A stretch of DNA of 59,840 bases, filler included, from Jimgerdemannia flammicorona (GCA_003990765.1; 3 parts of 3 records of this genome joined end to end with filler, not necessarily neighbours in it); one strand, 5' to 3'; shown: positions 16,601-40,759, counted from the whole stretch's first letter. Numbers and translations: made by a program. The notes: generated from the sequence alone by a model not told the origin.

Positions 16601-19145
16601 CCTGCATTTATCAAAGAGCTCAATCTTTTAATCTCCTCTCAGCCTTCTACACCTTTGCTCCTACCAGCCATCCCCCTCTCTCTAACAGTTCTGTTCAACT
16701 ATCTATCTCAATATATTGAAGTCTCTACCCAAATAGTTAATCTCTGCCTCTGCCATCACTCCTACATCTTAGAGTTCTCTTATCCACTCTACATACTCTC
16801 CTCTTTCTGCAGGGCAGTAATAAGACCCAATAGTTAAAGGGCTCCAGCCTGGCTCTACCATATCCTCTCTCCTATATTACTCTGTATCTCTAATTTTCAA
16901 TGTCCCTTATATCTCCTTTGCCCTTCTGAACCAAAATTCCCACCCAACTCTGCCTAACAGCTGCTCTACCCCATTCTCTCATCCAGTCTAGTCTGTCCAA
17001 GTCTACATCACATTTAATATCCTGCAGCAGAAACAGATCTGCATCTAGCTCCTTTAACTAGTAGAAAATATTCTGACATCTTATCAAACTCTATAACCTA
17101 TTGATATTTAAAGATAGAATTCTAGTTGTACTGTTCATATTAAATAATTATTATGAAGAAAGTTATCCACTCTACAATTCCATACTCACCATATCACTAG
17201 TAATATCCAGGTTCCTCTCTATCTCAAGCTCCTCAGTCTCCTCTTGCTGGACATCTAGAGCTACCAAGATCTCCTGATAGTCCTCACCATCCACAGTTTC
17301 TATGATAGACTGATACTTCTCACACACTATCTGCTACATTACTAACTACTTCCTAGATAGGCTATACAGTCATTCATAATCTCCAGAAGTACTGCCTCTC
17401 TGTTGCCATCTATCTCATACTCCTCTGCCTCCAACAGACCTACCATCAGCTCATCTTGAAGCTTCTGCACTACCTCTTCTCCTCTCAGAACCTCCCTCCA
17501 GTACCTCTTACTAATTATCTGAAAGTCTACCTCACCTAACTCATCTGTAGTAATATTCATCATTATCTTCTACAACCATCTCTCCTTTTCTATAGCCTCA
17601 TCCACTCTATAGACTATCTCCTACTCCCCAGTCCCTTGACTGCTAACAGCATCTGCTCTCACCAACTTATCCCAGTCTTTCTCTAGTATATTCTACAGCT
17701 TATTAGTTTCCTCTTTCTCTATAGACATATTATACTGAACTTAAGTCACCTCCACTATCACCTTATTCTCAACCACTGTACCTTGTCCTGAGTCTCCTCT
17801 TTTCTCCAGGGTCACCTTCATCACCATCCCCTTCTCTCCTGCCTAAGTACTAACCCTCAATCTAACTTCATTAGTAACATTCTCTCCCTCTGGCTGCCCT
17901 CCCAACTTTGCCAGTAAATTCTTCTGATACTTCCTCTCTTATACCCTCTCTCAGATAGTCTGATCCAGCTACACACACTTGTCATTTACTATCTCTACCA
18001 CTATCTTAGCCTCAAACTCCTTCCAGACTAATCTTCTCTTCTCAATAGTCCTGGTCAGATCCTCTAATACCTCCAGCAAGTCCTCTTCCACCTCTGGCAT
18101 CTCTTTGATCCTTGAGACCTTATACTCCACTAGTCCTTACTTAAATACTACCAGCTAATATCTTTCTTTTCCAGTATTCTTCTTGTCTACCAACCTTACC
18201 CTGATATCCATATTCTCAGTTCTGAACTCTATACCCTTCCAGACCCAGAAACCAACATCCACCACATCTCTATACTACTTAATGACATTGATAATCAGCT
18301 CCCTAGCCTCTCCCTTCTTTTTTATAGATACATTCACCACCACCAGCTGTACTACCTGAAGGTCTCAGCATAAGTACCAAGCAATAGAGATAGCTATCTC
18401 TCTTACTACTACTCTTTTCTCCAATGCTCCCAACATCAACTCCTCCTTCTTGAACCCCACCCCACTTTCTCCAGTCTCTTCAAGAACTTTACCAAGGTAG
18501 CTCCTCTCACCTCCTGAGCCAGCAGCCCCAAAACTATTCTTGCTATAATTACTAAGCTCCAGAAGTACAATATGATGGTAAATTTGGACACCAATTTCTT
18601 GAGTAATAGTGCTGCCACTAGGTCTATTATACCATCAATCAGATCTCCAGACCTTATGCTCTGCCCCTGTCCAGCCCCACTATCAGCTGTCACATCTGGA
18701 TTTTTTTCCAGATTAGCAGTCTTTTCTTCATCAGCAGTCCTGCTCTCTCCAGCTACTATTTCCCTAGCTCTGTCACTACTACTCCCTGAGGCCTCTCTAC
18801 CAGACCCTATAGCCTCCTCCTTTTCCTTATTTCTCTATAGCCAGATCTTCAAGCCTGTTGATGATTACTCAGCCTTGATCTTGTCAGCAAAGCTCACTCT
18901 TTCAGTCTCTTGTCTCATAGTACCACCCCTCCCCTTTAATGTCCACCAGCTAGCAAGCCCAACAGACTTCCCCCCAAGCTATGATTTCTCCCCACATGCT
19001 GCCAGTTGAATATACTAGGGTCACTCTGGCCAGCACACTCCTCTAATCACTCATTAGTTACTATGTTGTTATTATCTTTACTCCAAAAACTATGTTGAAA
19101 GTATTGTTAGAAGTTTGTATAATATAAATTATAGTAGAGAGAGCT
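7670..19145 (-). mobile_element. near full-length decayed LINE A (ORF1 plus APE-RT ORF2), split by LINE B at 9192-14907
   Basis: The family 3' end CAAGTGACTATAA lies on the minus strand at about 7685-7697. RT motifs GVLQRDQLSLILYALSLE..GAFADD at 14963-15196. ORF1 remnants at 17342-18900 are homologous to ORF1 of LINE B. Confidence 0.8.
9192..14907 (-). mobile_element. near full-length LINE B (L1/Tx1-like): ORF1 about 14718-12977, ORF2 about 12950-9380
   Basis: Poly(T) at 9192-9225. 18-bp TSD TCCTAACACTAGAGTCTC at 9174-9191 and 14908-14925. APE start FSLNMNGL..FLL*DVH. RT motifs FLDQEKVYDRV, PQGDPLSPILY and AFVDD. Confidence 0.9.
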
Positions 19146-19400
19146 GTTAACTAAGTATATAAGGTAAAGGCAAAGATCTTTTTACTTATTGATCTTATAT
19201 TTGGATATCACCAAATTTGTATCAAGAAAGAAAATATCTCAAAAACAGTATTTTAAATAAGATTCAGATACTATAAAGTCTATATAATACAATTCAGTCT
19301 AACTAATATACCAGTAACCTTTCAGATACTGATGAATAATTTATTTTAAAAATATCTTAGAATATTTGTCCTAGTATATCTAGATGATATCCTAATATAT

Positions 19401-19882: not shown

Positions 19883-19982
19883 NNNNNNNNNNNNNNNNNN
19901 NNNNNNNNNNNNNNNNNNNNNNNNNNTTAATTAATTAANNNNNNNNNNNNNNNNNNNNNNNNNNNNNNNNNNNNNNNNNNNN
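19883..19982. other. artificial 100-nt linker/gap
   Basis: N44-TTAATTAATTAA-N44 (stop codons in all six frames). Confidence 0.97.
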
Positions 19983-20938
19983 GCAACTATTTAATGTAAA
20001 CTCGGCTAAATTATGTAAACTTGAACTACCAAGCTTGTGGCTGAGACCAGAGCGAATTGTTCAGGGCGATGCTAAGGTTTGTCCTTTGTAAAAGGGAGTC
20101 GAGAAGCATGGACACTCTGGCTTTTAGAGTTGCTCTTTTATGCCAGAACATTTCCTTATAACCTGTCGAGATACTGTTGGTTATTTCGGTCTGCATGCTA
20201 AGCCTGAATGAATCGGTTTCCCAAACACGAACCCCTTTATAAAAAATAAAAAATAAAAAATAAAAAAAGTGTGTTCTCGTGCATTACATACCGTCCATGA
20301 GGCTGCCAGTGTTAAGCAGATGCTGAAATGACTGACCTTGCCGCCTTCTTATGCAAATATTGCGAATGGAGTGATCACGTCTACATTGGATTGGGGCGTA
20401 TCGGCGCAGTTGTCACAGTCTTTTTGAGAAAAATATGTCGCCGCAACCGTATGCAACAAAACACATTTATATCGGAGGTTTGGCTCAGAGTTATTGCATA
20501 CACACGATCGTATCTCAAATATCGAGACGAAGAAGCCTCCTTTACGCCAAGCTTGTCACCCCAATATTCCCGGATGGACGAGGCGCCGTAGGCGCCGAAG
20601 TCTGTCCCAGACTTTACGAGCTTTGGGAGGACCGTGAAGAGTTGGTTTCTGCCATCCTGAAAGCGTTGGCATGCTTTATTTTGTCTTAAACATGGGTTTA
20701 TCCATGCGAATTTCCTTCTGTCTAAGACATATATGTATGAGACATTTCATGTAAAACATGGTAATAAGAGAACATCTTGACTCCCATGGAGTCCCTTAGC
20801 CTAGAAAGCTTGGCATGTGAGCCAGGAACACCTGAAGGGAAATATAGGAAAAAACCAGCTGGTGAAGCACAGCCAAAAATAGGAAAATGAAATATACCCA
20901 AAGAAAAATGAAAGAAGGGTCGGGAATGGGTGGGAAAT

Positions 20939-21050
20939 CAACTCTTCACGGTCCTCCCAAAGCTCGTAAAGTCTGGGACAGACTTCAGCACCTACGGTGC
21001 CTCATCTATCCAGGACTAAGCATCACTTTGTTCTGGACTGTTTCAGAGTT
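20939..21050. repeat. DIRS internal complementary region (ICR)
   Basis: 20939-21015 is the reverse complement of 20568-20644, and 21016-21050 is the reverse complement of about 25351-25385. Together they copy the circle junction. Confidence 0.85.
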
Positions 21051-21129
21051 GGTTGTTTGTAGATCTGATATGAGTGGAGCATCTGGCCAGGGGTGTGCTG
21101 ATGGCCATGACTTTACTCTTGTATTTGAG

Positions 21130-22050
21130 GACCATATAAATAAGAGAAGTGGTCTGAGCAGATTGTGAAAGAACTGGCATCTGGTGTAGTAGATGATAGT
21201 GGCATTCAAACGTAGTTTTGGAACTCCAATTGCTGCTCTTGAGGACTTTGTTGATGGGCGTACCTCCTTCCAGGGCTTCAGTGGAGAATTCAGCCCAAAT
21301 AGAGTGAGGGTGATGAACCGGATCAATACCCATAGCTGCCATGTATTCGGAAAACCAATTTCGAAGGTGGTCAGATATAAGGTTGTGATGGGGAGAGCAC
21401 ATACTGATGAACAGGCAGTTGCCATTTATCCATGGGTGGAGGGGATCCATCTTGGAAAACCCAGTATACAGGGCACATATTTTTGTCCTCCAAGAGGGCT
21501 GGAATGAGACAAGAGATCTTGGTGGTGACATCAGGGGTACATTCCTTCATCATGTTGGTAGTTAGGACTATTTCAATGGGCCAATCGCTGATGCCACTGC
21601 AAAAACTGATAGTTGCCCGGCATTTCACAAAATCGCTCACCACCTACCAGGAGGTGCATAGGGTGAGAAGAGCATGTGTTTTCTTACCACAAAGTACATA
21701 TTACTGGATGGAGTTGTAGGGGCCCAGGGAAGCTAGCTACTGAATAAGGGTGGTAATGTCCCATCAGGTGGCCTTGTCTTTTGAGAGAGGGGGTTAAAGA
21801 TTCACAGTACCCTGGATCAGACAGGAGATGGTCAGAAGGTTGGAGAAATGAACACTGTTCATCATGGGGGTCCACCGGCCAATGGCGGTATGGATGCTCT
21901 GAAGCTGATATGTGCTCATCCCTTTCTTGAAAAGCTGAGCCAAGCAGTTAGTACATTGCTCAGTAGAAGCTCATAAGGGATTGATACATTGTTGATGGTA
22001 CCAATAGATAAATTATTGGTATACTGACTCATAGTTCTTATATGAGGATA
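21130..22050 (-). pseudogene. DIRS tyrosine recombinase (frameshifted)
   Basis: ..EDKNMCPVYW.., HSIWA (HSxRA with CGG>TGG) and NWSSKTTFECHYH with the C-terminal catalytic Tyr pattern of DIRS YRs. Confidence 0.8.
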
Positions 22051-22214
22051 TCTATATACTGGCTCAGATGAGTTTGTGAGCCTGTGGCACCAGTTCTGCA
22101 GTATCAGGAGATTGCTGCTGATTTGCCATACTAGAGCATCCTAGTGTATCATCTATATCATTGTCATCATTGTCATTGTCATCAGGAGATAATAAAGAAG
22201 AAGAATGGGGGGAG

Positions 22215-22490
22215 TGGTTATCATTTCCAGGAGTTTGGGCCACTAGCTCTATCATTGCCAAAATGATATAATGAGGACTAGGCAAGCATACCTGTTCTCC
22301 TTAACCTTGCATAGTGTGCAGTTGAGGAGGATCCATGGCAGATTTGCATAAGTACCAGAGATCAGCCATTGATGTTGGAAAACATTGGTGTCCAGGGCCT
22401 CAGGGTCTACCTGCCAGCTATAGAAGAGGGGGTCTGGATCATTGTCTGTGATGTGAAGAGGTCCTGGTGTATGGGACTCCAATAGAGGAG
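22215..22490 (-). pseudogene. DIRS DNA N6-adenine methyltransferase-like (MT) domain
   Basis: QDLFTS..FYSW..DPEALDTNVF..W....YANLPW.LL...L.KV; NLPW is NPPW after one C>T change. It sits directly after RH, as in DIRS-1-like pol. Confidence 0.75.
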
Positions 22491-25400
22491 ATGATGGAAT
22501 ATCATTGGGTTGAGTTGCCATTCGTTTGGGCTGGGGCAGATACAGTTCAGAAAATTGGCATGCATGTTTTTGATCCTAGAGATGTATTCAGCAAAGAGGT
22601 ATATCCTCCTCATCATATAGATGTAGTGTATCTTGGTGGCAATCTCATTCAGGTAGAGGAGAGAGCCCTCTTACTTGTTGATAAAAGCTCTTATGGTCAT
22701 GTTATCCATCCGAATGAGGACCATGTGGCCCTCTCAATAGTGGTTGTTGATCTGGAGCATGAACAGGACTGTCTTGAGTTCACAGTAGTTGATGGAGTGG
22801 CATCATTCCACAGGGGTGTAAGTGCCCATCGCTTGCTGTGTCGCTTGGCTGGTGGACATGGAAGTAGTGATTTTGAAGCTCCAATCTAGGTCACTGGTAT
22901 CTGTATTGACTGTGACCTTGGAGTGTTCAGTAAGTAGGGACCGACCATTCCAGCTGGAGAGCTTGAGAGACCACCAATAGAGGTCCTCCTGAGATGTTGG
23001 AGAGATGTATATAAGACCATTCCAGTTGTGGTTATTGGCATTAAGGGAGTCCTGGATGTCCTGAATGAGAGACCATACTCAAAACTGGGCTGGAAAGATT
23101 ACCTGTACTGTAGAGTTGCAAAGACCAACTAGCAATACCATCTTGTATATAGGGATCATGGTTGACAGTTGGAGGAGAGATATAGATTCCTTGCAGATCT
23201 TGTATACCTTATCCTTAGGTAAGCAGAGTTCCATGTTCATGGTATTGACCAGGAACCCCAGGAATGTCTGTTACTGCATGGGTTCCTATATGTATTTTAT
23301 TGGGTGTAGAAGAAAGCCCAATATCTCCAGATGGTCACGAACGATCCTCCTATATCAGAGTGCTTCGTCTCTCATAGAGGCCAGGAGATATATATCATCA
23401 ATGTAATAGATGAGCCAGACACCCCTTGCTTGGAGAGGCTCCAGAACCACTACCATCATCTTCATCCAGATGTATGGAGCAGATGACAGACCAAACAGCA
23501 TAGTATGGAATTTCCAGTTGATCTTCCACCACTAAAAGGTGAGGAACTATTGATTGGCTGGGTGTAAGGGAATGTGTAGGTAGGTATCCTTTATATTGAT
23601 CTTGATGAGGTGGTCACCAGGCCAGACTATATGGCATAGGGTCTGGATACCTTCTATCTTGAAGTACAATTGCCTCATGAACTCATTCAGTGAATGGGTA
23701 TTGAGGCAGGCTTGGTTCTTGTCAATCTGGGGGATTGTGAAGATATTGGAGAAGAAGAGCAGCTCTCCATCCTGGGTGGGGTAAATGGCCTCCTTGTCCT
23801 GAAACTCAGTGATAGCAGTGTCTACCAGGGCCTTCTCTATTGCTGACATACCCTTCTTATAGAAGAACCTGGGTTCAGTCCAGAGTGGGGTCAGGGGTTG
23901 TAATCATTTGATGTGGTTCTTACTATAGGCTATATTGATGACCCAGCAGTCGATGCCCATAGTTGTCCAAACAGTCTTGGGGACCTGGGCTAACTGTGCC
24001 CCCACCTTTGAGATAATATTTGAGGTCTTGGGGGTGATAGTATGGTAGATCAATTGGTCCTTTAGAGTTGAGCAGCAGGTGTTGATATGCTGTTGCCCAG
24101 ATTCAGAGCTCAGTACTGGAAACCTCCTTGGCTGTATATACTCAGAGTGTGGTTCTGGGAGCTCTGTTGTTGAGAATTTTGATAGTTGAAGTAATGGCTA
24201 CCCCAGGACCCATTTCCCCAGCCATGACCATCAGGACCATGGGATGGGGTTGGATTACCTCTTGGTTTGGAGGTTGTCTTGACCATGAGGAGATGCTTGT
24301 GGTGTTTGGTGTCATCATAAAAATAGCGGATAAATTTAGTACCAAACAGGTTGCCATCATACTCAGAGCCAGAAGCCACTGTGTGGCAGGTGGAGATGAG
24401 GGCAGGTGACCATCTTGTGGATTTGGCTAGTTCAATGCAGTGGCAGATATGGATATGTTCTACTTCATAGAATCTGATCCAGAGAGAGTCTTGCAGTTTT
24501 TCCACCAAAGGGAGAATAACAGTATTATGGACCAGTCCATGGTAGTAGAGATCAGCTCTATCAGAGCAAGGTTCAAGGGCCTGGAGGGTGATGGTGATGG
24601 GCCAGAGGGTGTTGTAGATTGCTTGTTGGGTGTCAGCAAGAACCTTGTCTACTTCTTTGGTGGATTTTCTGAAATCATCTGTGAATGCTTTGTCAATAGA
24701 GGGGGTATAGAGAACACCCCATTTGGGTTTGGGGTTTCAATGGAGGAGTTTCTTGAAACTGGTGAAGAAGAGGTATACTTTGATATATTCTGGTGGAATG
24801 GTATCAGTGAATGTGGGAGATATGTAATATCTCCTGATGGTCCAAGACTTGGCTGCTGTGAGGAATTCATCATCACTGCTGTTGACATCATTGTGGAGGT
24901 CCATACCATCAGAATTCCCATTGAGTCCAAGGACTACAGGGACGGAATGTCAGGAATTCCAAAGGAAAAGGGCATCAATGAGGCTTTATTGGTCATCTGG
25001 TTTGTGATCTCTGGATCCAGCAGAGGAGGGCAGAGGCTGACTGTGACAGCCTCAGTGATCTGGCAAAGGAACTCGGTACACTTGACCAGGGCAGCCTGTT
25101 GTTGTTGAAGGAGTTGTTCATTGCTCATAGTAATGTAATAAAAAAAGATTCTGTGGATCATAAGAAGAGGCGAACTGCCAAGCTTTCAAAATGACTAAGA
25201 GACTCTATGGGAGTCAAGATATTCTTTTATTACCATATTTTACATGAAATGTCTCATATATATATGTCTTAGACAGAAGGAAATTCGCATAGATAAACCC
25301 ATGTTTAAGACAAAATAAAGTATATCAATGCTTTCAGGATGGCAGAAATAAACTCTGAAATGGTCTGGAACAAAGCAATACTTTGTCACTTTTTCTTCTT

Positions 25401-25866
25401 CTTCTTTTAGCTGCATTGGAATTTGTATTGCATGCAACTTGCCATTGAGGTTGTGATTAAATCCATTTTTACTGTAGAAGTGGTTGTGGCTGAAACAAAT
25501 TCAGTTCAGCCCATGTGACTACAGAGTTGACAGGTCATAAGACATACAAGCATACACTAGTGAAAAGTGCAGTTATAGTGTCAAAAGGATAATTGGTATA
25601 GTGTAAAGAGTAACCCATGTATGCTAGTCTATTGTAACCCTTCTTGTAGAACAAGCTTTCTATGCCTTGGTACATAGTTGCACAACTATCTTTGTCTAAT
25701 GTTGCCCAGTAGGTTTGATGGTAGAAATCAACATGGTTAAAATACAAGTAATCTTTTCTCTATATTGTTAATAGCCATTAAGGCTGCAGTCAAAACTTGA
25801 GTCAGAAGGTTAGCATTTTGGTGATTAAAATGACATTGTGATTAATTTAAACATAATGCTTATATT

Positions 25867-26251
25867 TTAGATTAATGCAACAGTTCTGAGCTGTATATTT
25901 TAAGCAAAGATCTCTGGTACCTTATTTTCATTTGCTACCATATGCAAAGCAATGAAGCAGATATTTCTGGTAGCATTGATATCTCTGTTTTAGACGATAG
26001 CACATTCTTTATATTTGAGTATAGTATGCAGAGAGTTACTCTTAGTATAGATATATTTCAAGGTTATGATTTGATACTTGGAGTATACTTTAGAAGATCA
26101 AAATTCAGAAATATTGATGAGTACCAAATTGTCTAAGTAGTCATATCACCAGAGAGTATGAAACAACTCTCATGAGATATCAGTCATCTTCTCTTTTATT
26201 ATAGATGAGAATGTATTATCTCTAAAGATTACAATAGTGAATTTTAGTTTA
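25867..26251 (-). pseudogene. Fanzor1 (TnpB-like RNA-guided nuclease), C-terminal RuvC-II / Zn finger / RuvC-III relic
   Basis: Single frame reading TIVIFRDNTFSSIIKE..LVLINISEF*SSKVYSKY..LHTILKYKECAIV*NRDINATRNI..VPEIFA. Reversing transitions gives IV.FGD.F....KG..I.EFRSSKVCSKC..LH.ILKCKEC..WNRD.NAARNI. Confidence 0.85.
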
Positions 26252-29200
26252 TATGGTAGAATACTTGAAAAAGAGTAGAGAGAGAAAACTACATTTGTTT
26301 ATTAATACTAGCTTATACACTTTTATATATATTGATGACATTTATATAATAATGTAATCAAGCTATACCATTATATATTAAGTTGCTATAACTAAGATAT
26401 TTTAATATTTTAATACTTCTACTCAATGAGATATATTTCAAAATATGCAAATAAAGAACTGACTAAGAAAACTAAATATAACCAACTAGATACTATCTAG
26501 ATAACTAAAAATAAAAAATAAAAATAAAAATCCTACTTATAAGTATGAAAATAAGTAAACAGAGTAGTAAAAAAATAAAAATCCAGAGTAATATTATATA
26601 ATAAATAAAATTACCTATAACTAGATGAAACTAGTAATGTTAATAAATATATATAAGATATGGTGAAAGACTTTTAGTATTTCAAAAAAAAAACTTTCTA
26701 TTATCACTATATTATAATTATTGCTATTGCTTACTACTTACTATTATAAAATTTTCACTTACTAGTATATAGTTTCTGTTTACTAGTATAGAATTATCTG
26801 TAAGTCTCATTCCTTATATATATAAGTAAAACTTTGTCTTTGGAAGAGCTTTAGCTAATGGATCTATCATCATATACTGTATTGAGATATATTTTTATAT
26901 AGTATTATTTTCTATATATTACTATATAAAATAATATTATATATCAATATATTTGGTTCTTGCATAATGTATAGAGTTCTTTACTATAGTAATTATAGAC
27001 TAATTGTTTTGTTAGAGTAATATAAAATACTATTTCTGAGAAAATTCCAATTCTTTTAATAGTTTTCAAAGTTATATAGCTTACTTTATTACCATAGATA
27101 ATATTACCACTAAAGATTACTTATATGTTTACTATGAAATAACTCAGTTTTTACTAATTTTAAAAAGATATCTGATCATAGACCATCTGTTATCTAGATC
27201 ACTGATCCAATTGATATTATATATATTGAATAGTCTTATAGTACTCCCACTTTGTTCCTTATTATCACTCAAACTGAGCTTATAGTATGCTGTATCTTTA
27301 ATATACTAAAAAAATATACTTAATTACTATCTAATGTAATTTGTCATGGTAGGATGAGTACTGTGCTTCTTTGTTAACTATATTCAATATATTAGATCTC
27401 ATTCCAAGTATAGGATATATAAGAGATCTCACAGTTTATCAATAGAAGATATTGTTATCTTTGGATATAGTATTAGACTTTCTTAATCTTATAGATATCT
27501 CTATAGATATTTTGACAGATTTGTATTTACTCATACTGAATTATTTGAGTATAGTCTGAATATATATAACTTATAATAGATATATAGTATGCTTATACTA
27601 TCATAGATAATTAATATTCCAAGAAAATAGGATATGTTTCTCATATTTATCATCTTGAATTCTTAATATAGTATTATCTTTATATTATTAATCTTACTTG
27701 CTATCTCAACTTAAATAATATAATCAACTCAAATTTCTAAATATATTATCTCTGAGGATATATACTAGGTAATATAGATTGACTTTGTAATACTTAATAT
27801 CAATTTTTCAGTTCCACAGTCTTGTCACTTGCTTGATACTATAGAGATCTTTATATAATTTACATATGAGCTAATTTTGCTTATTATTATATAGTTCATA
27901 TTCCTGTAGTTGACAAGAAGAATTCTAAGTAAAGTAAGCTTAAATACTAGAGAGAAGGTCTCATTATAGTCTATACTATATTCTTATAAATATTTCTTTG
28001 TTATAAATTAGACCTTATATCACTCTATGTTACTGTTACTATTATATTTGACTTTATATATCTAGTAGAATCCTATTACTTATTACTTCACCAGAAGAGA
28101 GACTAGATTCCATATATTATTTTTAATAAGTGAATTATATTCCTCATCTATAGTCTTTTTTTTCATCTAAGTATATAGCTTTATTATAGTTTATTAGCTC
28201 ACTAGTCATTGCTATATAGATATACTTATAGATATAGTTTATATGATATTGTTTACTATTATAACAGGATGTCTTAAGCTGGTCTCAATAATCTTCTAAA
28301 TCTGCTTTATGTAACTTTATTTTATAGTCTTTTAAAGAGATATTCTCATATCTATAATTTTTATAATTCTTGGCTCTAATAGCCTCATTGATATATATAA
28401 GTTATGCTAGCATAGATATTATTTTATTTATTTTTAAAGTTAGTATAGATGTCATTAGTGGTACTATTAGATTTATAAAAATAAGAATTTCTATATAAAT
28501 TTCCTACACTTTGATCTCCTTGAACTAAATGTTATAAGAGATAACTATATAGCATTTCTGTGGATTCTATAATCTATATACTACTTCATTATATCTAAAA
28601 GTATATACTTATCTACCTTAGGTTCAAATTTATCTCTATTACTACCTTTATCTAAAATATAAGCTTTACTTCTAAATATCCTTAGGTATGAAATATTGAG
28701 CTTAGATCTACTCTATAATTCTTCAGATATAAGATCACTATCATTTTTAGATTGTTTACTAGATCTACTAGATCTATCAAAATTCTTACTTAGAGCTTAA
28801 GAAATATAATAATTTTATATATACTGCAGTATTCACTACTTTAGCTCAGAAAGAGTATAGTAAGCTAGCTATATTCATCATCATTGAGCCATCTCTACTA
28901 TTATTTGGTTAAAGTGTTCTACAAAACCATTCTGTTCAGATATATAGAGAGTCATTGTAGAGTATTAGATATTATACTTCTTCAAGAAGTATCTAAAGGT
29001 TTTATTGATATATTTCTTACCATTATCTGAGTATAGGGTCTATATTTTTTTTTTATAGTCTGTATAGGGTCTATATCTTACATCTTGTTTCATTTTCTAT
29101 AATTTCTTTGAATTCTTAGTATTTTTTAAATACCTCATTCTTTACTATAAGAAAGTATATATAGACTTTGTGAGTATAATTGTCAATAAAGGTAATAAAG

Positions 29201-31142
29201 TATCTTTTCTCTAAGTATGTTGAAATATATATATATATATTATATTAAGAATACTGGTCACTTACTTTATCTATTCCTAAAAAGATTATCAGAAAGTCTT
29301 ATTTGCTATATATCTATTACAAAAGCTGAAATGTGGTAATATATAGTTCAGTAATCTATATATAGATTTACTCCTTATTATCTATTCTAAGCTCATATTG
29401 TCAATGTATTCTAGTGTTTATATTATATATGCTAAATATTAGTTACTATTATAGAATATGTAAATGATATACCACTTAGCATACTATTGATTATATATAG
29501 ATTCTCTCTTTTTGATATATATATTAGCTTCTTATTATTCTTTAGGTTAATTACCATAATACTATTTGGATATATATTTACTTCTTTATCTCCTTAAGCC
29601 ATCATCTGACCTATCAATAAGATATTCTTACTCATATTAAGTATATATAATATATCTATAAAGATGCCTGAGAGTTCACTAATATTCTTATACATATATA
29701 TATAGATATTTTCCTTATCTTGAGTATAAATAATATTATTATCATCTAATTTAATAGATATGAGGTGCTCAAACTTCTCATATAAAGAATTACTCATAGT
29801 GTACTATTATATACTATATTGTACCAGAATCTATAGGTTAGACTTTTTTTACTCTATATAAGTACTCAGTGTATAGTTTTTATTAGTATAAATTTTTTTT
29901 CCAAATTCACTTCTATATCTCTCTCTATATAGATAGATTACTACTTCTGCAAAAAACAGTCTCTACTACTTTTATTATTAGTATCTATGATATTCACTTG
30001 TCTATATTGCTTATCTTAACTATCTTTTTTTCTTCTTCTTATAGTTGTAGTCTTTCTTGCAATATCTATACCTATTATAGTAGAAATATTTAATATTAAA
30101 TTTGGCTTATTGACTATCACACTGCTGGTTTTATCCTTATTCTTTATTTAGCTTATCTTTGCCTCATCTATACACTTCATAGAATAATTTTTTTGTCATC
30201 TTTATTATTATTGTCACCCAGTCTTGATTTCTTATTTAGAAGACTTGTAATGATATACTTATAGTCTAATAGTTAGTCAGATTTCCTCATAGTAGTAACA
30301 ACTATATTATATATCTCAGAAACATTATACATAAGGGCCAGAATCTTATCTTTATCTTTGATGAGATCTACTAGTATAGAAAAAAAATTCACTTGATTCA
30401 TCAGATCATTAATATGATTAGTATAGTTTTAGATACTCTCCTTAAATTTAATTCAGAGATTGAATAGTTATACTTTTAGATAGAATCTATTTGATATAAA
30501 TGTCTACTGATAGTGATTTTTTAAGATCTCCCAGGCTTCATTTACTGTTATGGCATTGATAATGGGTTTTATTAGCATATTTGAAAAAGTAAAGATAATC
30601 TCTCTTAATACTCTGTAATTCTTTATAATATTGTATTCTATTATTTATATCTGTAGCTTTCAGTAATCCTCTAAACCATATTCTTTTAAGAGATTCTTTA
30701 TATAGTATACCTATATGGTATAATTCTTATTATTAAGACAGAAATCATCTTCTTTATCATTATTGATACTACTGTAGGAATAGTTATAGTTGTGACTATT
30801 ATAATAGGCATACTTATACTACTAGTATCTATTCCAGATCTCATTCTACTTATACTATTTAGCAGACTTATATTTGATATATCTGGTAGGTATGATATTT
30901 TTCTTTATATTGTATAGTATATATATTAGAGAGGTATCTTTATTATTATTGACTTTTATTAGTGAGACTTATAATCTTTTATTATAGAATACTTAGAGAA
31001 GAGTAGAGAGAGGAAACTACTATTATTTACAATACTTACTTATATGCTTTTATGTATATTGATAACATTTACATAATAATATAGTTAAGCTATACCACTA
31101 TATATTGAGTTGCTATAATTAAGATATTTCAATATTTCAATA
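26252..31142 (-). mobile_element. full-length, heavily decayed Ty1/Copia element
   Basis: Direct LTRs at 26252-26415 and 30980-31142. 5-bp TSD GTTTA at 26247-26251 and 31143-31147. Decayed PBS (AGATTATAAGTCTC, like AGGTTATGAGCCC) and PPT. RNase H ARTKYIDI and integrase EQNGFVEHFN. Confidence 0.88.
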
Positions 31143-31497
31143 GTTTATTATGAGGTTTTATATACTTTTATTTTAAATACAAAGTAGGAAAATTAGAGAG
31201 ATTAGAATCTAGAGAATTGGGAGAGAGTTTAGAAAGATAGTAAGAAATATATATAGTTGTTATATTTTTTACTATCAGTTATAAACTATCTATATAGTTT
31301 AGAGAAGACTTTCTGCTATCTTTAATAATATCAAAATAGCAGCTTTCACGACTTTTCATTATAGAATTAGATAAGCTTCTTGTTACTACTGAGAATTTAT
31401 ATAATAAATTGATCAAAAATTATAATATTTATTATCTTTATAAAAGGTATATAATCTAAGATAGTTTATAGCTCAGGGTTCTCTATTCTCTATATAA
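31143..31497 (-). pseudogene. Fanzor1 relic, middle part, upstream of the Copia insertion
   Basis: ENPEL*TILDYIPFIK..KKLI*FYNEKS*KLLF*YY*R*QKVFSKLYR*FITDSKKYN resembles IPS.KT..L..FY....K.RF..Y.GRQKA..E....GSKKY. After a probable frameshift, it joins the C-terminal part in frame across the GTTTA TSD (KPHNK-LKFTIV). Confidence 0.75.
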
Positions 31498-31956
31498 TGT
31501 GACAGTACAGCCAAACTTAGAAGAAGGAAATAGAGAATAGACACTTGATTGCACCCATTCCCAAAGTAGTATAAGTCTTATAGTTAGCAGTCCTCAATTT
31601 CAACATTGTCTAAATTCTTAGACATTATCCAAATCGAACACCCCGATTTAGTATAGTATTTAGACATTGTCCAAATGTTTCGACAAAGTCCAAATGACTC
31701 ATTTATTACTTAGCCACCCTCTCATAGCTAGCAAACTTGTATAAATAACCCAGTATCTTTAAGTGAATAAACCTCAGATCGAAATAGTTCAAAGCAAAGA
31801 GATAGCAAAAGAACTAGTAAGCCTGTGGGCAGATACACTTCAAACTCACCCACCCTCCCCTACAACTTCAAGAGACTCTGCGAGAGTCAGAACAGTCAAG
31901 TTTTCAAGATACAGAAATCCAATATACTTCCAAGAGTAAGCGTCCACTACGTTACA
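31498..31956 (+). repeat. 5' LTR
   Basis: TGTGACAG...GTTACA with TATAAATA at about 31740 and AATAAA at about 31766. About 95% identical to the 3' LTR by manual alignment. Confidence 0.95.
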
Positions 31957-32070
31957 ACTTGGTGCCCATTGGCTGGTGATTCAAGACAAATCCCTCACTT
32001 TCAAGCTGAACAACAAACAACCACCACTACCTGAACAACCATACAAACCGAGCCCCAATACTCAGACAAG

Positions 32071-35000
32071 ATGGATATGAGACCGCCAGTATTCCATGGA
32101 TATACCTCAGATGAATCAATCATTACCTTCATTGACAATTTCAAGTAGTATGCTGCTGTAAGGACTCTGACAGCAGCACAGCAAGTAGCCCTCATGCCTT
32201 TCAGCCTATGAGGCCCTGCCAGAGCAGCATTCACAGCCGCAACCCATGCAGGAAATGATGCTGATGCCATACTGACAGCACAGAAGACCTGGCTCCAAAA
32301 TACATATTACACAGATAAGATCAAGCAAGCCCTGAAGGATCAGCTCAACACAATATACCAAGGAATAAGCGAGGATCCAAACACATTCTATACCAGAATT
32401 CGATATCAGATAATCCTTACAGATTATGCTGCTGCTATCTGAGATCAAGTAGCTGAAACAACCTTCATGAAAGGAGTCCATCCAGAAATAACCATGGCTA
32501 TCTGCTCATCACCAGTGATTCTGGATCTGCCACAGAAGGTCACCTATGCTCAGCAATACTGGATAGCCAGACACCCACAAGACCACACAATGGAGAGAGT
32601 TACAGGAGTCAGAATCGAGGTACCCAAGGCAACCAGTGTGATCCCCACCACAATGATCAATCGAAACACACCTCAGCCAAAAGCTACAGAGCAGCAAAAG
32701 AACAGTGACCCTATGGAGGAACTTGCCAAAAGGTTTGCTGAAATGACTGCCCATCTGGGAGATGTGGTAAAGGAAATCTGAGGAAGAGATCACCACTCTG
32801 TTCAGAAGTTTGCCACCACCTCAGACAAGAAGAAAGGTACCTGCTACAGCTGCAAAGAAGAAGGCCACTACTCCTATGAATGTATGAGTGAAACCAAATG
32901 CAAGGCTCAACCAAGCAATGCCACACAAAACAAGGAGTAGGCCAATACAATCACCTTTGAAGAAATCAGAGAATCCGATGAAGAGGAATGGGAGGCCTAT
33001 CCTGCTCAGACCACCAAGAAGGATGCTCGCAAAGAACCCTACAAGAGACCACCAGGAAGACCTAAGAAGAACCCAGTGGAAAAGTGGATGGAGACTGATA
33101 CAGAAAGCCAAGCTGAAGAAATGGACCAAGACATTGAGCTGGAGCAAGCAGTTCAAGATATCATCCAAGAAACCACTCCAACCAGTGAAGGAGAAAAAGA
33201 AAAGAAGCTTTGCAAGACCAAGACCTTCAAGTATGATATCTTCAAGGATCTCAGTCAACAAAAGGTCAATGCAACCTTTGGTCAGCTTGTAGAAATCCCA
33301 ACATTTAGACAGCAAATGAGGTTTAGACTTGCCAAAACAACCAAGGAACAAGGATGGAAGATAACTGAGGCCAATAATGTTCAAGAGGACTCAGGAGAAG
33401 AAAGTGAGGATAATTGCAAAACCTCTGCTTATGCAATATACCAAATCGAAGATAGAACCTTTGAAGCCATCATTGATACAGGAGCAGGAGGATGTCTTCT
33501 CAGTAAGAAGGCAGCAGATCACCTAGTTTGGGATGTGGAAGAAGCAACTAAGCTAGTATTTGTCACAGCCGATGGCACAAGAGCCACACCTCTGGGAAAG
33601 ATCTGAGATGTTCCCATCAAGATCAGAGGAGCAACAATCCCAGTAGATGTAATCGTAACCAATGCCACCAACTATGACATCCTCATCGGCAATCAATGGC
33701 TTCACAAAGCCAAGGCAGTAATCAATCTCAATGCTCAGAAGATGCAGATCACCTACCAGGGACAGAAGATATGAATTCCCATCAACATCAACAAAGGAGT
33801 CCTGCCCGATATGGAGGAAGAAGAGAGTGAGCAAGAGGAAGCTTATATGGTGACTACCCCAAAGAAGAAGAAAGTCAGATGGATGAGTGAAGAAGAATGG
33901 TATAAGAAGATCGCAGAAGGCTATGCCCCACAAGGAGTCTGTCCTCATGGAATCAAAATGTACTGTATGGAGCATGTCAACGATTGCTACCAGTGCACCA
34001 TCGGAATCAAGAAGATCTACCAGGAAAGAAGGCAGAAAGCTCTCGAAAAACAGATCAGGGAGGAAGATAAGGAGAAAGACGATGAACCACCAGCCCTCCT
34101 GGAGGACAGTGATGATAAAGAAGAAATCAAGGTCAAGATTCGAAAAATCCACCTTGATGCAGTCTTGCCAGAATACAAGTCAGAAAACATAGCTGGAATG
34201 GACATCGCTATAGTAGAAGAAACTGTACTTGAACCCCAGACAACCACCCTACTCACAACTGGACTAGAGATGACCATCTCAAAGGATCATGTCGGGATTC
34301 TCAAGATAAGAAGTAGCCTGGCTAGAAGCAAAATCACAATCGAAGGAGGAGTCATTGATTCAGACTATACTGGAGAAATTCTACTCATTGCTAGGAACCA
34401 TAATCCTACAATTCCATTTCCAGTCAAGAAGAAGGACCGATTGGCACAGATGTTGATCTTCCCAATCATACAGCCAAGGATCATAAAAGTCAAGAATCTG
34501 GAGGAAATGAAAAGAGGAAAGAAAGGATTCGGATCCACTGAAAGAGAAGTATTCACCAGCACCAATATCACTGAACTTGAGCATAAGAAGGAGGAAAACA
34601 TGAGCAAGCACAGTTACACCATTGGAGACAAATTCCCACTCAAGGAGGAACTCAAGAAAATACTCCACAAATTCGAGGATGTCCTTGCCACAGATTTCAA
34701 GGATATCAAGGGAAAGACCCCACACTACTATCACGAGGTAGATACCAGAGACACCGAACCAATTTACCAGAAGGCAAGACCTGTCCTGCCAGCCTACCGA
34801 GAATGGCTCAGAGAAGAAATCAAGCAGATGGAAGAAGCTGGCATCATCAAAGAAGCCAGTAGCCCCTGGTCTTCACCAGTTGTACTAGCCTCAAAAAAAG
34901 GAAGCAAACCTGGAGAATTTGCCCCAAGGCTCTGTGTCAACTACAGAAAGCTCAATGCAGTTACCAAGAAGGATCGCCAACCACTGCCGCTCATCAGTGA

Positions 35001-36063
35001 CATCCTTATAACACTGGGAGATGAAGTACAGTACTACAGCACCTTGGACTTATATTCAGGATTTCACCAAATCGGACTCACAGAGATGGCAAGTGAAAAG
35101 TCAGCCTTCATCACCCCAGACGGAACCTACATCTACCTATAAATGCCATTCAGAATGTGTAATGCACCAGCAAGCTTTCAACAAATGATGAACAAAATCT
35201 TCCGCTATGACATGGGAAGATGGATGATGGTTTATGTCAATGATGTAATCATCTACAGCAAGACACCTGAGGAACATCTGCAGAACATACAGCAGATAAT
35301 GGAGAGACTAAGACAACATGGCCTTTATATCAAACCCAAGAAGTGCAAGTTTGCAGAAATCGAGATCTCCTATCTTGGCCATATTATCAATTGAGATGGA
35401 ACACACATGGACCCCCTCAAAATACAAGTGGTAGCAGCATACCCAAGACCCACTACTGTTACAGAAGCCCAAGCCTTCATGAGACTTGCCTCCTACTATC
35501 GCAGATTCATTAGAGGATTCTCCAACATCGCAGGTCCAATCTATGAACTCAACAAGAAGGATACCAAGTTCCAGTGGACTGGCAGACAACAAAAAGCATT
35601 TGATGAACTCAAGATCAGACTAACTCAGGCACCTATCCTCAGACGACCCAATTGGCCCCAAGAATTTATCCTTCAGATGGATGTAAGTGCACAAGGACTA
35701 GGAGCAGTCCTAGCTCAAAAAGAAGACAAAAAAGAGTATGTCATTGCATATATTAGCTATGGAACCAGAGGAGCTGAAAAAGAATATGAGTCCTACAAGT
35801 TGGAATGCCTTGCAGTCATCTGGGCTGTGGAAAAGTTCCACTACTATCTGGCTGGAAGACACTTCACCATCCAGACGGACCACTCAGCTCTCACCTGGCT
35901 ACTGACAACTGGACAATCCAAGGGAATCTATGCCAGATAGATAATGAAGTTACAAGCCTATAATGTAACCATTGTACACCGCCCTAGAAGAACAAATTCC
36001 AATACAGATGCTCTCTCATGGACACCTCGAACTACCTCCAACCAACAAATCAATCATGAATAA
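32071..36063 (+). pseudogene. gag-PR-dUTPase-RT-RNase H polyprotein (single frame, nonsense-interrupted)
   Basis: All ORF fragments from 32467 to 35940 are in the same frame. CYSCKEEGHYSYEC knuckle, IIDTGA protease, dUTPase (AGMDI, RSSL, GVIDSDYTG, RLAQM, RGKKGFGST), RT (YVNDV), RH (MDVS..GLGAVL, LECLAV, TDH). Confidence 0.92.
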
Positions 36064-37249
36064 GGAGCTCTACTATGGAATTATCACATACCTGGGACAG
36101 CAAAAGATGCCCCAACATCTGGAAGAATGGACACAAATGATTATCAACAGGACATGGAAACAATTTGAAACTGACAGACAAACACTGAAGAAAGAAAAAC
36201 TACTGGTCATACCAGAACACAAGAAGGAGCAAGCAATGAAATCAGTACATGAACTTGGCCATCTAGGAGGAACAAATATATATGACAAGGCAAGAAGAAC
36301 AATATGGTGGCCAGGGATGGAGGAAGATATCAGAAAATTTGTCAAGACATGTGATAAATGCCAGAAACAGAAACAAGACCAATAGAATCAAGCCCCAGGA
36401 TTAGCATACATAGAACCAGTACTATTTGCCCATATAGCAATGGATGTAATCGGCCCTCTACCCTTGACCCTGAGTGGTAACCGATACATTATTGTCATTA
36501 TAGACCTTTTTATGAAGTGGATAGAAGCAGGACCCCTCAAGGAAGCCAATGTACAGTCAATTGCTGATTTCTTCTACAAGAAAATCATCTGCCAGTTCAA
36601 GACCCCAACACAAGTAACTACAGATAGAGGAACAGAATTTGTGAACCAGCTCTTTGAGGTTCTCTACAAGAAGTACAAGATCCAGCACATTCAGACCACA
36701 GCCTATCACCTCCAAGGAAATGGACAAGTAGAAAGGACCAACAAAACTCTCAAGAATGTTATTGCTAAGATCTGCAATAACTACAAGAACTGGGATCACT
36801 ATCTACCAATAGCATTATCTGCTCTCTGGGATATCCGATCACAAAGCACCCACTTTACCCCTCGAGAAATGCTGTTTGGAGAAGAATGTTCTCAAGGAAC
36901 CCTATCATCCAATGGAGATGCTGTATAGAAACATGTAGACATGGAAATACGGAGACTACACCAAATCAGGAAGAAGGCTGAGAATTACATAACCAAGGTG
37001 CAGACACTACAACAGAGGAATGTGGAAAAGACCCACAAGCCCTTGGAGATTATCAAGATAGGAGACAAAGTCCTAGTGTATCGGAATATGGTAGAAGCTT
37101 CATAGTCATGAAAACTGGAGCTCAAGTGGGAAGGACCTTACCATGTGCAAAATATAAAAGGGACCACCTTTTGGCTATGAAAACCCTCAGGCACAATAAT
37201 CCCCACCACTATTCACTGAAACCGACTCAAGAAATATCATGGCCAGTAA
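36056..37249 (+). pseudogene. integrase as a separate ORF (+1 frame)
   Basis: ATG at 36056 (MNKELYYGIITYL). HHCC (HELGH..CDKC), DDE core (MDVIGP, TDRGTEF, GNGQVER) and C-terminal GDKVL..W.GPY..NRLKKYH. Stop at 37247-37249. Confidence 0.85.
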
Positions 37250-37685
37250 CAAAAGTACTGCAATGGCACTCAAGATCACTAGTGCTGCCCAAAGAGCCAT
37301 CAAAAGACAATGGCACACCACCGAGCCTCTGACTATAGAGGCATACTATGAGGATATTCAGAGTATTGTGCAGACTCATCTCTCTCAGATCTCACACTTT
37401 AGAGCCTATCAATATCAGGCAGAATTCTAAGAGTACTTCAAGCTTGGACAGGTGCTCAATCAGGACCCAGCAAAGACCAAGGAGGACTGGATTGCCGAGT
37501 GTCAACTCTCCCACTCACAGATAACTATTGTCAAAAGGATCCACAAGTTATTCTGAGAAGATGAAGCAGTGATAGACCACCTGAGAGGAGTAACCCCCAC
37601 CGACTTTGAGAAAGTGAAGAGACATCATTGGGAAACAGTCATACATACAACAAATTGCACAGTACAAGACCATACAGACCATTGA
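37239..37685 (+). pseudogene. extra ORF 3' of integrase, unknown function
   Basis: The ATG overlaps the end of the integrase. About 148 codons, with only two internal stops (TAA, TGA), both explicable as CAA/CGA deamination. Confidence 0.6.
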
Positions 37686-37741
37686 AGCCTGGGAGTTTGA
37701 ATAGATGCCTCAGGGATGAGACCATCCATTCAAGAGGAAGT

Positions 37742-38200
37742 TGTGACAGTACAGCCAAACTTGGAAGATGGAAATAGGGAATAGACACTTGATTGCACCC
37801 ATTCCCAAAGTAGTATAAGCCTTATAGTTAGCAGTCCTCAATTTCGACATTGTCTAAATTCTTAGACATTATCCAAATTGAACACCCTGATTTAGTATAG
37901 TATTTAGACATTGTCCAAATGTTTCGACAAAGTCCAAATGACTCATTTATTACTTAGCCACCCTCTCATAGCTAGCAAACTTGTATAAATAACCTAGTAT
38001 CTTCAAGTGAATAAACCTCAGATCGAAATAGTTCAAAGCAAAGAGATAGCAAAGGAACTAGTAAGCCTGTGGGCAGATACATTTCGAACTTACCCACCCT
38101 CCCCTACAACTTCAAGAGACTCTGTGAGAGTCAGAATAGTCAAGTTTTCAAGATACAGAAATCTGACATACTTTCAAGAGTAAGCATCTGCTACGTTTCA
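37742..38200 (+). repeat. 3' LTR
   Basis: Direct repeat of 31498-31956. Confidence 0.95.
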
Positions 38201-38204
38201 ATAA

Positions 38205-39862
38205 TAATACTTATTTCAACCCCTCTTATATTCTTAGATAATCTAGATAATAAGATATTACTTAGAGACTTAATATATATATATATATATATATCAAAAA
38301 GTCTTTTAATTATTCATTTACTTATTAGTATTTACTAAGATTAAGAAAGTATTATTTCTTTATAATAAAAATAAAATATTGCTCTTCTATAGTAACTATA
38401 GTTATAAGAGACTTATTCTTATAGACTCTTTCTCTATTACTATCTCAGTTATAAGATTTTGGTAGGTAATCTTTTAAGTATCTTTTCTATAATTTATTCT
38501 CTCTTTATCTCAGGTTAGTTTACTATACCTATTACAGGATAGTAAGAGAGAGATAATGGTGATAGGTTGCCTCTTTATCATTATCAGATTAGTGTTTTCT
38601 CTACTTTTTCATAGTTTCTGATATCTTTAGCTATATCAATTTTAGTATAGTATCTTCTTCCTTTTACTATTATTAATAAGGTATAATTATAGTATACATA
38701 TTATAAACTATATAGAGAATTTGCCAATCTTGAGTATTAAGTATCAGTATAGATTATCTACAAGTTATCAATACCTATAGTGAGGCTTACTGAGCTTTGG
38801 TAAGCTTTCTAGTGAGTATAGTTCTAGTATAGATAACTATTTTTCAGATAAAGTTAAAATGAGAGAAGAGGTAGCCATCACAGATAAGAGAAAGGACAAT
38901 AATAGTAAACTAGTTAAATATTAAACTAGAAGTAGTTATCAGAATTTGATTGAACATTATCTCAGTAAGGCCTTTTAATTAGCTGACAGATAGTGAGTAG
39001 TATAGTGGCTGATATTCTAACTATACTCAACTAAAACTAAGAGCTGATACAATAATACAATCAAGGTCTACAGCTTTAGAGAGTGGGACTTTCTTCATTT
39101 ATAGTATCTGACTGAAACTAAGAGCTGATATAGTAATATAATCAAGACTCATAGACTTAAAAAGTAGGATTGAGATCTTTTTAAACCTTAGTCTATATAT
39201 CAGTTCTTTTGAAAAAGTCTTATATATCTCTTTGACTGTTTTATAGCTATATTTAGAGACAAGATTTTAAAAGTTTATATCTTTTAAAATCATAATAGCT
39301 GTTAAAAAAGAAATTTAATAAAAAAAAAAATTTTTTTTTTTTAATAGAAAAAATAATGTTTCAAAAAATCATTTTTTCAAACTTTAATTTGTCTGCTAAA
39401 TGATTTTAAAAGACAATCTTATCTACAGTCAAAGGAATAAGTCCTTTACTCATCTACTATAAATCTGTTCTGCTTTTTGTTAATTGATAGGAGGGTTTTT
39501 TCTTTACCTCTAATTTTTATTTAGAGTCAGAGAGATTATAATATTCAGTTCTGATATTACTAGATCTAATATATAGGTATGCTCTCATAGTATTAGTCTA
39601 ATGATTCAGCCTTAGTAAATAGGCAAGTCTGGTCTATATATTATTAAGACAGAGTTACAATACTATCCTTATATAACTGAGATAGTAGGATTACTACTTC
39701 TCTTTATATAACTGAGATAGTAGGATTACTACTTCTCTTTATATATAGTCTAAAGATAATAAGGGAGTAATATTTAGAAGAGAGTGAAAGTGGATTTTGG
39801 TCTATATAGTCTAAGTTTCCTTTTAAAAAAAATTTACAGAAATATGATTTTATTAAAAAAAA
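38205..39862. repeat. decayed AT-rich repeat of unknown class
   Basis: About 38430-38585 matches the reverse complement of about 39980-40135. Short internal duplications at about 39036/39116 and 39669/39704. Confidence 0.5.
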
Positions 39863-39962
39863 NNNNNNNNNNNNNNNNNNNNNNNNNNNNNNNNNNNNNN
39901 NNNNNNTTAATTAATTAANNNNNNNNNNNNNNNNNNNNNNNNNNNNNNNNNNNNNNNNNNNN
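39863..39962. other. artificial 100-nt linker/gap
   Basis: N44-TTAATTAATTAA-N44. Confidence 0.97.
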
Positions 39963-40740: not shown

Positions 40741-40759
40741 TTATCTTTACTTTTGAACT

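Follow-up and report, generated by a model that had tools for sequence, protein, structure and literature searches.

Fanzor1 proteins are eukaryotic RNA-guided nucleases of the TnpB family, and the available portions of the literature describe several features by which they can be recognised. The TnpB/Fanzor superfamily shares the motif D-X(125,275)-[TS]-[TS]-X-X-C4 zinc finger-X(5,50)-RD (Bao & Jurka 2013, PMC3627910); in Fanzor1 proteins RuvC-I is marked by a DPG motif and the WED domain by a (T/S)DG motif (PMC10711439); and in Fanzors the canonical RuvC-II Glu is replaced by Gly or Pro (PMC10530073), with an alternative Glu located just before the zinc finger (PMC10530073, PMC13565253). Fanzor1 families have already been listed for Rhizopus, Phycomyces and Mucor (PMC3627910, Table 1). 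Here we describe a Fanzor1 relic in a 59,840-nucleotide stretch of DNA (filler included) from Jimgerdemannia flammicorona (GCA_003990765.1; three parts of three records joined end to end with filler), hereafter called the window. On its minus strand, two coding pieces (25906-26250 and 31253-31492) and a non-coding tail reaching ~25777 very probably represent what is left of a Fanzor1 gene and of its carrier DNA transposon: the gene's dead 3' third, with approximately the final 230 of some 810 codons, and the transposon's non-coding right end. By sequence comparison, the relic is a hypermutated, insertion-split 3' fragment of a clade related to Fanzor1 genes from Mucoromycota and soil metagenomes. 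It has no working function now and is one more unremarkable fossil of a family whose presence in early-diverging fungi was already known.

The C-terminal piece (25906-26250, minus strand) comprises 115 codons with four internal stops and covers the former RuvC-II strand, the alternative Glu, the zinc ribbon and RuvC-III, its frame closing at a TAA stop codon at 25905-25903. Read from 26250, it starts KLKFTIVIFRDNTFSS, with VIFRDNTF, and its later part runs INISEFxSSKVYSKY...LHTILKYKECAIVxNRDINATRNICFIALHMVANENKVPEIF. Alignment to a family hidden Markov model (HMM), built from 14 relatives (alignment A1) with the window sequence excluded, shows VIFRDN (26215-26232) to be the decayed remnant of the 'VVAFGDG' strand, in the place of canonical RuvC-II; its Gly codon is now AGA (Arg). 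In A1, residues A328, G330 and F334 of this AFGD strand are nearly invariant, and E369, the counterpart of the Glu in ISEF, is invariant and lies six residues before C376. The relic has kept this Glu (GAA, 26104-26106) in ISEFxSSK, six residues ahead of the first zinc-finger position. The zinc ribbon (TNB; 26002-26085), which matches PF07282, reads VYSKY...KYKEC where relatives have VCSKC...KCKNC, such that the superfamily's [TS]-[TS]-X-X and C4 zinc-finger feature appears as S-S-K-V-Y-S-K-Y...K-Y-K-E-C in the relic and as S-S-K-V-C-S-K-C...K-C-K-N-C in relatives; the three lost zinc Cys codons are now TAY (Tyr), one G>A step away from TGY. The RuvC-III 'RD' follows in NRDINATRNI (25989-25960; WNRDVNAARN in relatives) with its Asp (25981-25983) kept, and a TAA stop just before it replaces the Trp of relatives. 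An earlier reading made from the sequence alone (hereafter the sequence-only reading) had placed ISEFxSSKV at 26112-26086 and xNRDINATRNI at 25992-25960 in one minus-strand frame, and these motifs and coordinates are exact. Its 'RuvC-II' Glu in ISEF corresponds to the alternative Glu, six residues before the zinc finger, that Fanzors use according to the available text of PMC10530073 and PMC13565253. Overall, the relic contains 12 in-frame stops, one +1 frameshift and the replacement of three of four zinc Cys by Tyr.

A phmmer search of 1,835,955,588 representative proteins with the 115-residue read-through translation of 26250-25906 retrieved 19 proteins at E<=0.001, two of them at E<=1e-10. 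The best match, P0004 (E=7.6e-18, 47% identity), reads ...VPEFRSSKVCSKC...SCKNCATVWNRDVNAARNLRFIALHMAANENKVPEVF in the region aligned to the relic, and this alignment shows that the relic's stops occupy Arg or Trp sites of its relatives and its odd tyrosines occupy zinc-Cys sites. All 19 relatives contain PF07282 (the TnpB/Cas12f zinc ribbon; Cas12f1-like TNB, formerly OrfB_Zn_ribbon), with 15 above the Pfam cut-off and four below it (P0010, P0012, P0013 and P0015). When the open reading frame (ORF) of the closest full-length relative, L001, was used as a tblastn query, residues 721-833 matched the C-terminal piece at 43% identity (E=1.1e-21). In six-frame translation of the window the family HMM made just two matches, one to the C-terminal piece (26244-25900, profile 197-312, 94.0 bits) and one to the middle piece (31483-31253, profile 91-167, 27.0 bits). 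The 447-residue protein P0015 likewise matches the window twice, in order, with residues 326-409 at 26235-25993 and residues 218-293 at 31489-31262 (38% identity, E=7e-8 for the latter), and the transition-aware score of the middle piece is 175-187 against a control maximum of 78. Since the middle piece was absent from the query that found the family, these matches independently confirm that the two pieces belong together. Elsewhere in the window, P0015 residues 230-258 gave a weak tblastn match at 58806-58720 (minus strand; 41% identity, E=0.027); a second relic copy at 58720-58806 was rejected because the family HMM did not recover that stretch, and the match is probably due to chance.

The middle piece (31253-31492, minus strand) corresponds to the bridge between RuvC-I and RuvC-II, contains eight in-frame stops and reads ENPELxTILDYIP ... 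FYNEKS ... QKVFSKLYRxFITDSKKY, in a frame different from that of the C-terminal piece. The two are separated by a decayed variable linker (31148-31252, minus strand) and by a heavily decayed Copia long terminal repeat (LTR) retrotransposon (26252-31142, minus strand), which is recognisable by its target-site duplication GTTTA (26247-26251 and 31143-31147), its 170-bp LTRs (26249-26418 and 30977-31145, 83.5% identical) and a minus-strand Copia-type gag (PF14223, E=2.1e-12). The sequence-only reading had joined the halves by removing the Copia at this duplication. The insertion and its duplication are real, and both halves are collinear parts of one family by P0015 and the HMM, but they do not join in a single frame. 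The last upstream codon is complete at 31148 and the first downstream codon begins at 26250, leaving base 26251 spare; at least one one-base indel must therefore lie in or near the variable linker 31252-31148, which by frame arithmetic must hold the +1 frameshift. The transition-aware segment shared with P0041 reaches 31205, into this linker. The splicing and reversion of mutations that had been proposed as checks were replaced by piecewise searches and codon-compatibility counts on the unspliced, unrepaired pieces. In these piecewise searches both halves match one protein family, and they do not come from unrelated ones.

Sequence profiles and a predicted structure place the family of the relic as Fanzor1-type. 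The A1 profile, compared with all PDB sequences, matched SpuFz1 best (8GKH, E=1.3e-7) over profile positions 40-167 and 232-312, the first stretch spanning RuvC-I through the bridge, and no other PDB chain aligned past the zinc ribbon. Matches ranked below SpuFz1, which were LaTranC, GtFz1, 8HR5 (annotated as a transposase), PpFz1 (E=3.2e-5), Cas12g, TnpB and mimivirus Fanzor2, were confined to the zinc-ribbon and RuvC-III part. A metagenome scan yielded 53 related loci, among them L001 with its 812-codon ORF; relatives of the relic are about 810-860 amino acids long, and the named ones (Umbelopsis, Mucor, Rhizomucor and Apophysomyces), on which the fungal assignment is based, are all Mucoromycota. 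In a Foldseek search with an AlphaFold model of L001, built from a 24-row alignment and with pLDDT of 70-93 across the RuvC/TNB half, ranks 1-7 were all Fanzor1 (SpuFz1, GtFz1 and PpFz1, E=1.4e-12 to 1.5e-7), followed at later ranks by Cas12f (1e-4), Fanzor2 (3e-4, rank 11) and TnpB (3e-3, rank 23). The grouping with Fanzor1 over Fanzor2 and TnpB is one of profile and fold searches, and it agrees with the Fanzor1 identity proposed in the sequence-only reading. In addition, the family carries GVDPG at RuvC-I (WGVDPG in relatives), the near-invariant Gly of AFGD in place of the canonical RuvC-II Glu, and the alternative Glu (E369) before the zinc finger, all of them signatures published for Fanzors. 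The words RSDG, STDG and ETDG also occur in relatives; the relic lacks the RuvC-I and WED portion of the protein. One of the related loci, L003:3394-4386 (identical to L002), is a 5'-truncated Fanzor1 copy of 331 codons that starts just before RuvC-I with its frame intact, in a 31.7-kb contig beside ordinary-looking genes.

SpuFz1 (Spizellomyces punctatus, Spu-1 elements; PDB 8GKH, 9CEU-9CEZ) ranks first both among the solved structures matched by the family profile and in the fold search with the L001 model (E=1.4e-12). This clade has in common with it a Gly where the canonical RuvC-II Glu would stand and an alternative Glu just ahead of the zinc finger. It differs in sequence (about 15% identity in the fold comparison with L001) and in its proteins of about 810-860 amino acids with a different N-terminal half; the window copy differs further in being a dead fragment without approximately 70% of the gene. 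The Fanzor1 elements of Mucorales (ROr, PBl and MCi of Rhizopus, Phycomyces and Mucor, and PpFz1 of Parasitella, PDB 9CF0) likewise have hosts in the Mucoromycota. PpFz1 was matched by the profile, as given above, and by the fold search at E=1.4e-7; the likeness to the ROr, PBl and MCi elements is one of published description.

Homology of the relic begins at 31492, within two codons of the LTR of a younger Gypsy/Ty3 LTR retrotransposon (31498-38201, plus strand). The latter has 460-bp LTRs (31498-31957 and 37742-38201) that are 95% identical, along with protease, dUTPase, reverse transcriptase (RT), RNase H and integrase domains, and possibly a 4-bp ATAA target-site duplication if the LTR ends in CA, which is weak evidence in AT-rich DNA. 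No upstream part of the gene was recovered. In tblastn searches with 14 pieces of full-length relatives, nothing in the window matched L001 ORF residues 1-606 or the WGVDPG block; a codon-compatibility scan for the RuvC-I block gave scattered best values of 11/19 and 12/22, compared to 36/43 for the positive control; when four relatives were compared with both strands in an ungapped, transition-aware scan, only the two known pieces emerged, scoring 150-306 with the three closer relatives and 74-91 with the more distant P0011 (maximum of reversed-query controls, 78); and nothing past the Gypsy (38202 onward) matched the conserved upstream block WGVDPG ... RRTSxxEYYH. These empty scans indicate that the first ~600 codons, RuvC-I included, are absent from the window, and they bear out the earlier statement that RuvC-I and the N-terminus are not visible beyond a Gypsy at 31498, an element that is itself real. 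The Gypsy may mark a recombinational deletion, or an older insertion may lie in the AT-rich DNA at 38.2-40.4 kb; either would account for the absence. That AT-rich DNA contains a 128-bp inverted repeat (38458-38585 and 39975-40102, 77% identical) that brackets about 1.6 kb beyond the Gypsy; this pair (38458-40102) may be a decayed non-autonomous DNA transposon, and no protein family was found inside it. In the Gypsy polyprotein (33775-35139, plus strand) a dUTPase (PF00692, E=1.8e-25) lies between protease and RT, and the closest relatives of the polyprotein are metagenome proteins of identical layout with at most 46% identity.

Nearly all of the damage in the relic is of one transition kind, C>T/G>A. 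For each codon, it was asked whether the residue of a relative could be reached by undoing C>T or G>A alone. Compared with P0041, 57 of 109 codons of the C-terminal piece encode the identical residue and 92 are reachable by C>T/G>A (controls: 57 by T>C/A>G and 63 by C>A/G>T); compared with P0015, 29 of 76 codons of the middle piece are identical and 57 are reachable (controls: 29 and 34, respectively). The counts for the C-terminal piece substantiate the earlier description of the zinc-ribbon pairs as decayed by TG>TA, and the test as a whole puts the ancestor of the relic at approximately 75-85% identity to these metagenomic proteins. Transitions also account for 21 of 23 differences between the Gypsy LTRs and 21 of 25 substitutions between the Copia LTRs, mostly at CpG or CpA/TpG. 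The GC content (fraction of G and C) is 0.22-0.30 over the relic and Copia; at 26-31 kb it is 0.22-0.25, with TpA/ApT of 1.07-1.20 and (CpA+TpG)/(ApC+GpT) of 0.83-0.99, compared to 0.41-0.46, 0.53-0.82 and 1.35-1.80, respectively, in the Gypsy at 32-38 kb. By the usual index thresholds for repeat-induced point mutation (RIP), we take the dinucleotide values of 26-31 kb to be RIP-like. From the GC contrast between relic plus Copia and Gypsy, together with the LTR identities, we infer that hypermutation followed the Copia insertion and largely preceded the arrival of the Gypsy.

The relic does not end at 25867, where the sequence-only reading had placed its limit, since its alignment with the non-coding flank of its closest relatives continues past the stop codon to ~25777. 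Fungal-type Fanzor1 loci are alike past the stop, where a hairpin is followed by a CATCC..TATA-GTAAGT motif and by a stretch bearing intron-like signals, all of which in the window occupy 25777-25898 (minus strand); loci sharing this 3' module are L001:3866-3995, L004:2143-2247, L005:1264-1397, L002:3633-3729, L006, L007/L013, L009, L011/L012 and L014. The small hairpin directly after the stop (25875-25898, minus strand) is shared by six sequences with compensatory changes: 81.8% of cells are paired versus 23-41% with slid partners, both sides have changed in four of eight pairs, and the covariation score was reached by three of 500 shuffles, statistics that are favoured because these six sequences also served for drawing the structure by eye. 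The hairpin is also present in single-sequence folds of all four relatives folded (L001, L004, L007 and L014). Next after it in fungal-type relatives stands a CATCCCCTATA-GTAAGT motif, whose decayed form in the relic is CATTAATCTAAAATATAAGC (25858-25877, minus strand), the CATCC..TATA-GTAAGT of relatives having become CATTAATCTAAAAT-ATAAGC. About 85 poorly conserved, T-rich bases then precede a conserved terminal block (...GCTAACCTTCTGACTCAAGTTTTGACTGCAGCCTTAA; 25777-25824, minus strand) found by nhmmer and alignment. The 3' flanks of L001, L002, L004 and L005, free of coding sequence and with the window excluded, were combined in an nhmmer profile that matched the window once, at 25824-25777 (E=5.1e-6; next best E=1.6). 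The block ends ...CTGCAGCCTTAA at 25778, and this position is the probable right end of the element because similarity to relatives stops there.

Judged by its likeness to known guide RNAs, the hairpin plus motif is likely a remnant of a guide-RNA (omegaRNA) scaffold. The omegaRNAs of PpFz1 and SpuFz1 contain the words ...AGGTAAGC... and ...TATAGGT... near the scaffold-guide junction (Table S3, PMC11423790), and the PpFz1 guide RNA, with a hairpin and then the ...AGGTAAGC... word before the guide, resembles the hairpin and ...TATAGTAAGT motif of the relic. Compared to Mucorales Fanzor1, this clade has about 85 more bases between the motif and the element end. RNAalifold gave no consensus fold in the terminal module or around the hairpin, an Rfam search of 25300-26300 had no match, and the ~85-base segment after GTAAGT folded no better than shuffles in three of five relatives. 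Long-range pairing with the NAARN codons was considered and rejected, the duplex energies being no better than those of shuffles.

Between the scaffold (hairpin plus CATCC..TATA) and the right end of the element lie about 55-200 poorly structured bases with intron-like signals: GTAAGT or GTACGT immediately 3' of the motif in the clade, a CTAAC-type branch site in four of five sub-clades, and a YAG 3-9 bases ahead of the point where copies cease to be alike (three sub-clades). The relic retains all of these signals in decayed form. It is conceivable, and in our estimation unlikely, that this segment is a spliceosomal intron whose splicing would remove the terminal DNA signals and bring the scaffold directly against the flanking guide; alternatively, the GTAAGT...CTAAC...YAG segment may be a mere spacer or the end to which a transposase binds. 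Our literature search found no paper on spliceosomal splicing at a Fanzor right end. Under the splicing reading the arrangement would be like that of bacterial IStrons, in which, according to the available text of 10.1101/2023.11.20.567912 and PMC13521648, a transposon end serves as an intron boundary as well and overlaps with the region of the guide RNA. IStrons, in those accounts, rely on a group I ribozyme and are introns over their full length; in the present clade, by contrast, the signals are of spliceosomal type, are confined to about 80-100 bases at the right end and are known from sequence alone.

A number of results weigh against the Fanzor1 reading of the locus. The read-through translation of the relic matched PF07282 alone in Pfam, at E=4.8e-4 and 20.7 bits, under the 26.3-bit cut-off; an NCBIfam search of the relic returned no TnpB model; and a single-sequence PDB search with the relic returned no TnpB, giving only FapR at E=0.44. 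The L001 model has a mean pLDDT of 61 and TM-scores to Fanzor1 of just 0.27-0.38. The RuvC-I Asp that should lie 125-275 residues upstream is absent from the window; this reflects missing sequence and not another family, because the relic is truncated. Finally, no terminal inverted repeat, target-site duplication or transposase partner was found for the Fanzor element. The sub-threshold Pfam match and the FapR-only PDB search, along with a word-based homologue search that gave no match with the relic, are what would favour a chance resemblance of the motifs in AT-rich, low-complexity decayed DNA, a reading that is nevertheless refuted, with hardly any probability left to it, by a best match of E=7.6e-18 among 1.84 billion proteins, by the 94-bit HMM match, by the second, independent collinear piece in the same family, and by about 8,000 residues of other, neighbouring AT-rich read-through translation in which no stray families appeared. 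Pfam searches of the three minus frames of 38202-41000 and of 31148-31497 also found no families. It is likewise very improbable that the relic derives from a Fanzor2/IS607-type element or, through transfer or contamination, from a prokaryotic TnpB. The zinc-ribbon and RuvC-III part does match TnpB, Cas12f, Cas12g and mimivirus Fanzor2 in PDB at E=3e-5 to 5e-4; however, beyond the zinc ribbon the profile (40-167) aligns with the Fanzor1 SpuFz1 alone, Fanzor1 fills fold ranks 1-7 ahead of Fanzor2 and TnpB, the relatives are about 810-860 amino acids long and lie in Mucoromycota genomes, and the relic is surrounded by eukaryotic retrotransposons.

The missing mobility signals bear equally on whether the locus could be the pseudogene of a host-domesticated, Fanzor-derived gene instead of the remains of a mobile element, as might also be suggested by the conservation of the relatives' 3' flank, with its intron-like signals, well past the stop. 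We consider this very unlikely: the relic lies in a transposon graveyard and is hypermutated like the Copia, truncated copies of its relatives are numerous within single genomes or metagenomes (fragment clusters; L003 is truncated), and Mucorales Fanzor1 genes are described as transposon-borne in the available portions of PMC3627910. Searches for an inverted partner of the right end came up empty in the window, where the left end is missing, and in L001, L007, L009 and L012, whose contigs are short. Because no inverted repeat, duplication or transposase partner was identified, carriage of this Fanzor1 gene by a DNA transposon is proposed by analogy; for some Mucorales Fanzor1, MuDR-type inverted repeats and 9-bp duplications have been reported, and none were found for the relic.

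By homology to characterised Fanzor1, the living protein would have bound a guide RNA transcribed from the 3' end and would have cut double-stranded DNA at a RuvC site formed by the RuvC-I Asp, the alternative Glu and the RuvC-III Asp; such guide-RNA-directed cutting is described for SpuFz1, GtFz1 and PpFz1 in the available portions of PMC10432273 and PMC11423790. Of these residues, the relic lacks the RuvC-I Asp and keeps the Glu (26106-26104) and the RuvC-III Asp (25983-25981). In the Fanzor1 history that we propose, the Fanzor element would have inserted first, after which a Copia would have landed in the linker ahead of the RuvC-II strand. A flood of C>T/G>A changes, from a RIP-like or methylation-driven process, would then have swept the region including the Copia, its transitions making at least 12 stop codons and destroying three zinc ligands. 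A younger Gypsy would have followed at the point where homology ends. The first ~600 codons are gone from the window.

Other features of the window include a DIRS-like retroelement (20638-25356, minus strand) approximately 420 bp from the right end of the relic, with a tyrosine recombinase (PF00589, E=5.6e-5) and 57-bp inverted ends (20638-20694 and 25300-25356) that are 89% identical. Elements resembling long interspersed nuclear elements, with RVT_1 and Exo_endo_phos domains, lie at 8000-19400 (minus), 40400-45000 (minus) and 49000-54000 (plus) and show an extreme strand bias, their coding strand having about 35% G and 11% C (GC skew ~0.5) with CpG near zero. Four runs of 44 N (19883-19926, 19939-19982, 39863-39906 and 39919-39962), forming two pairs 19,980 bases apart, resemble masking and not biology.

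The Fanzor1 relic indicates that a Fanzor1 element, from a clade now found mainly in soil metagenomes and Mucoromycota, once entered the lineage of this genome. Massive C>T/G>A mutation put this copy out of action, and retrotransposons buried it. The relic also points to intact relatives of about 810 amino acids, such as L001, as candidate RNA-guided nucleases. If the splicing reading were true, the right end would be a eukaryotic, spliceosomal counterpart of bacterial IStrons. The conserved, intron-like right end may also shed light on the way in which Fanzor1 guide RNAs deal with sequence from the transposon end.

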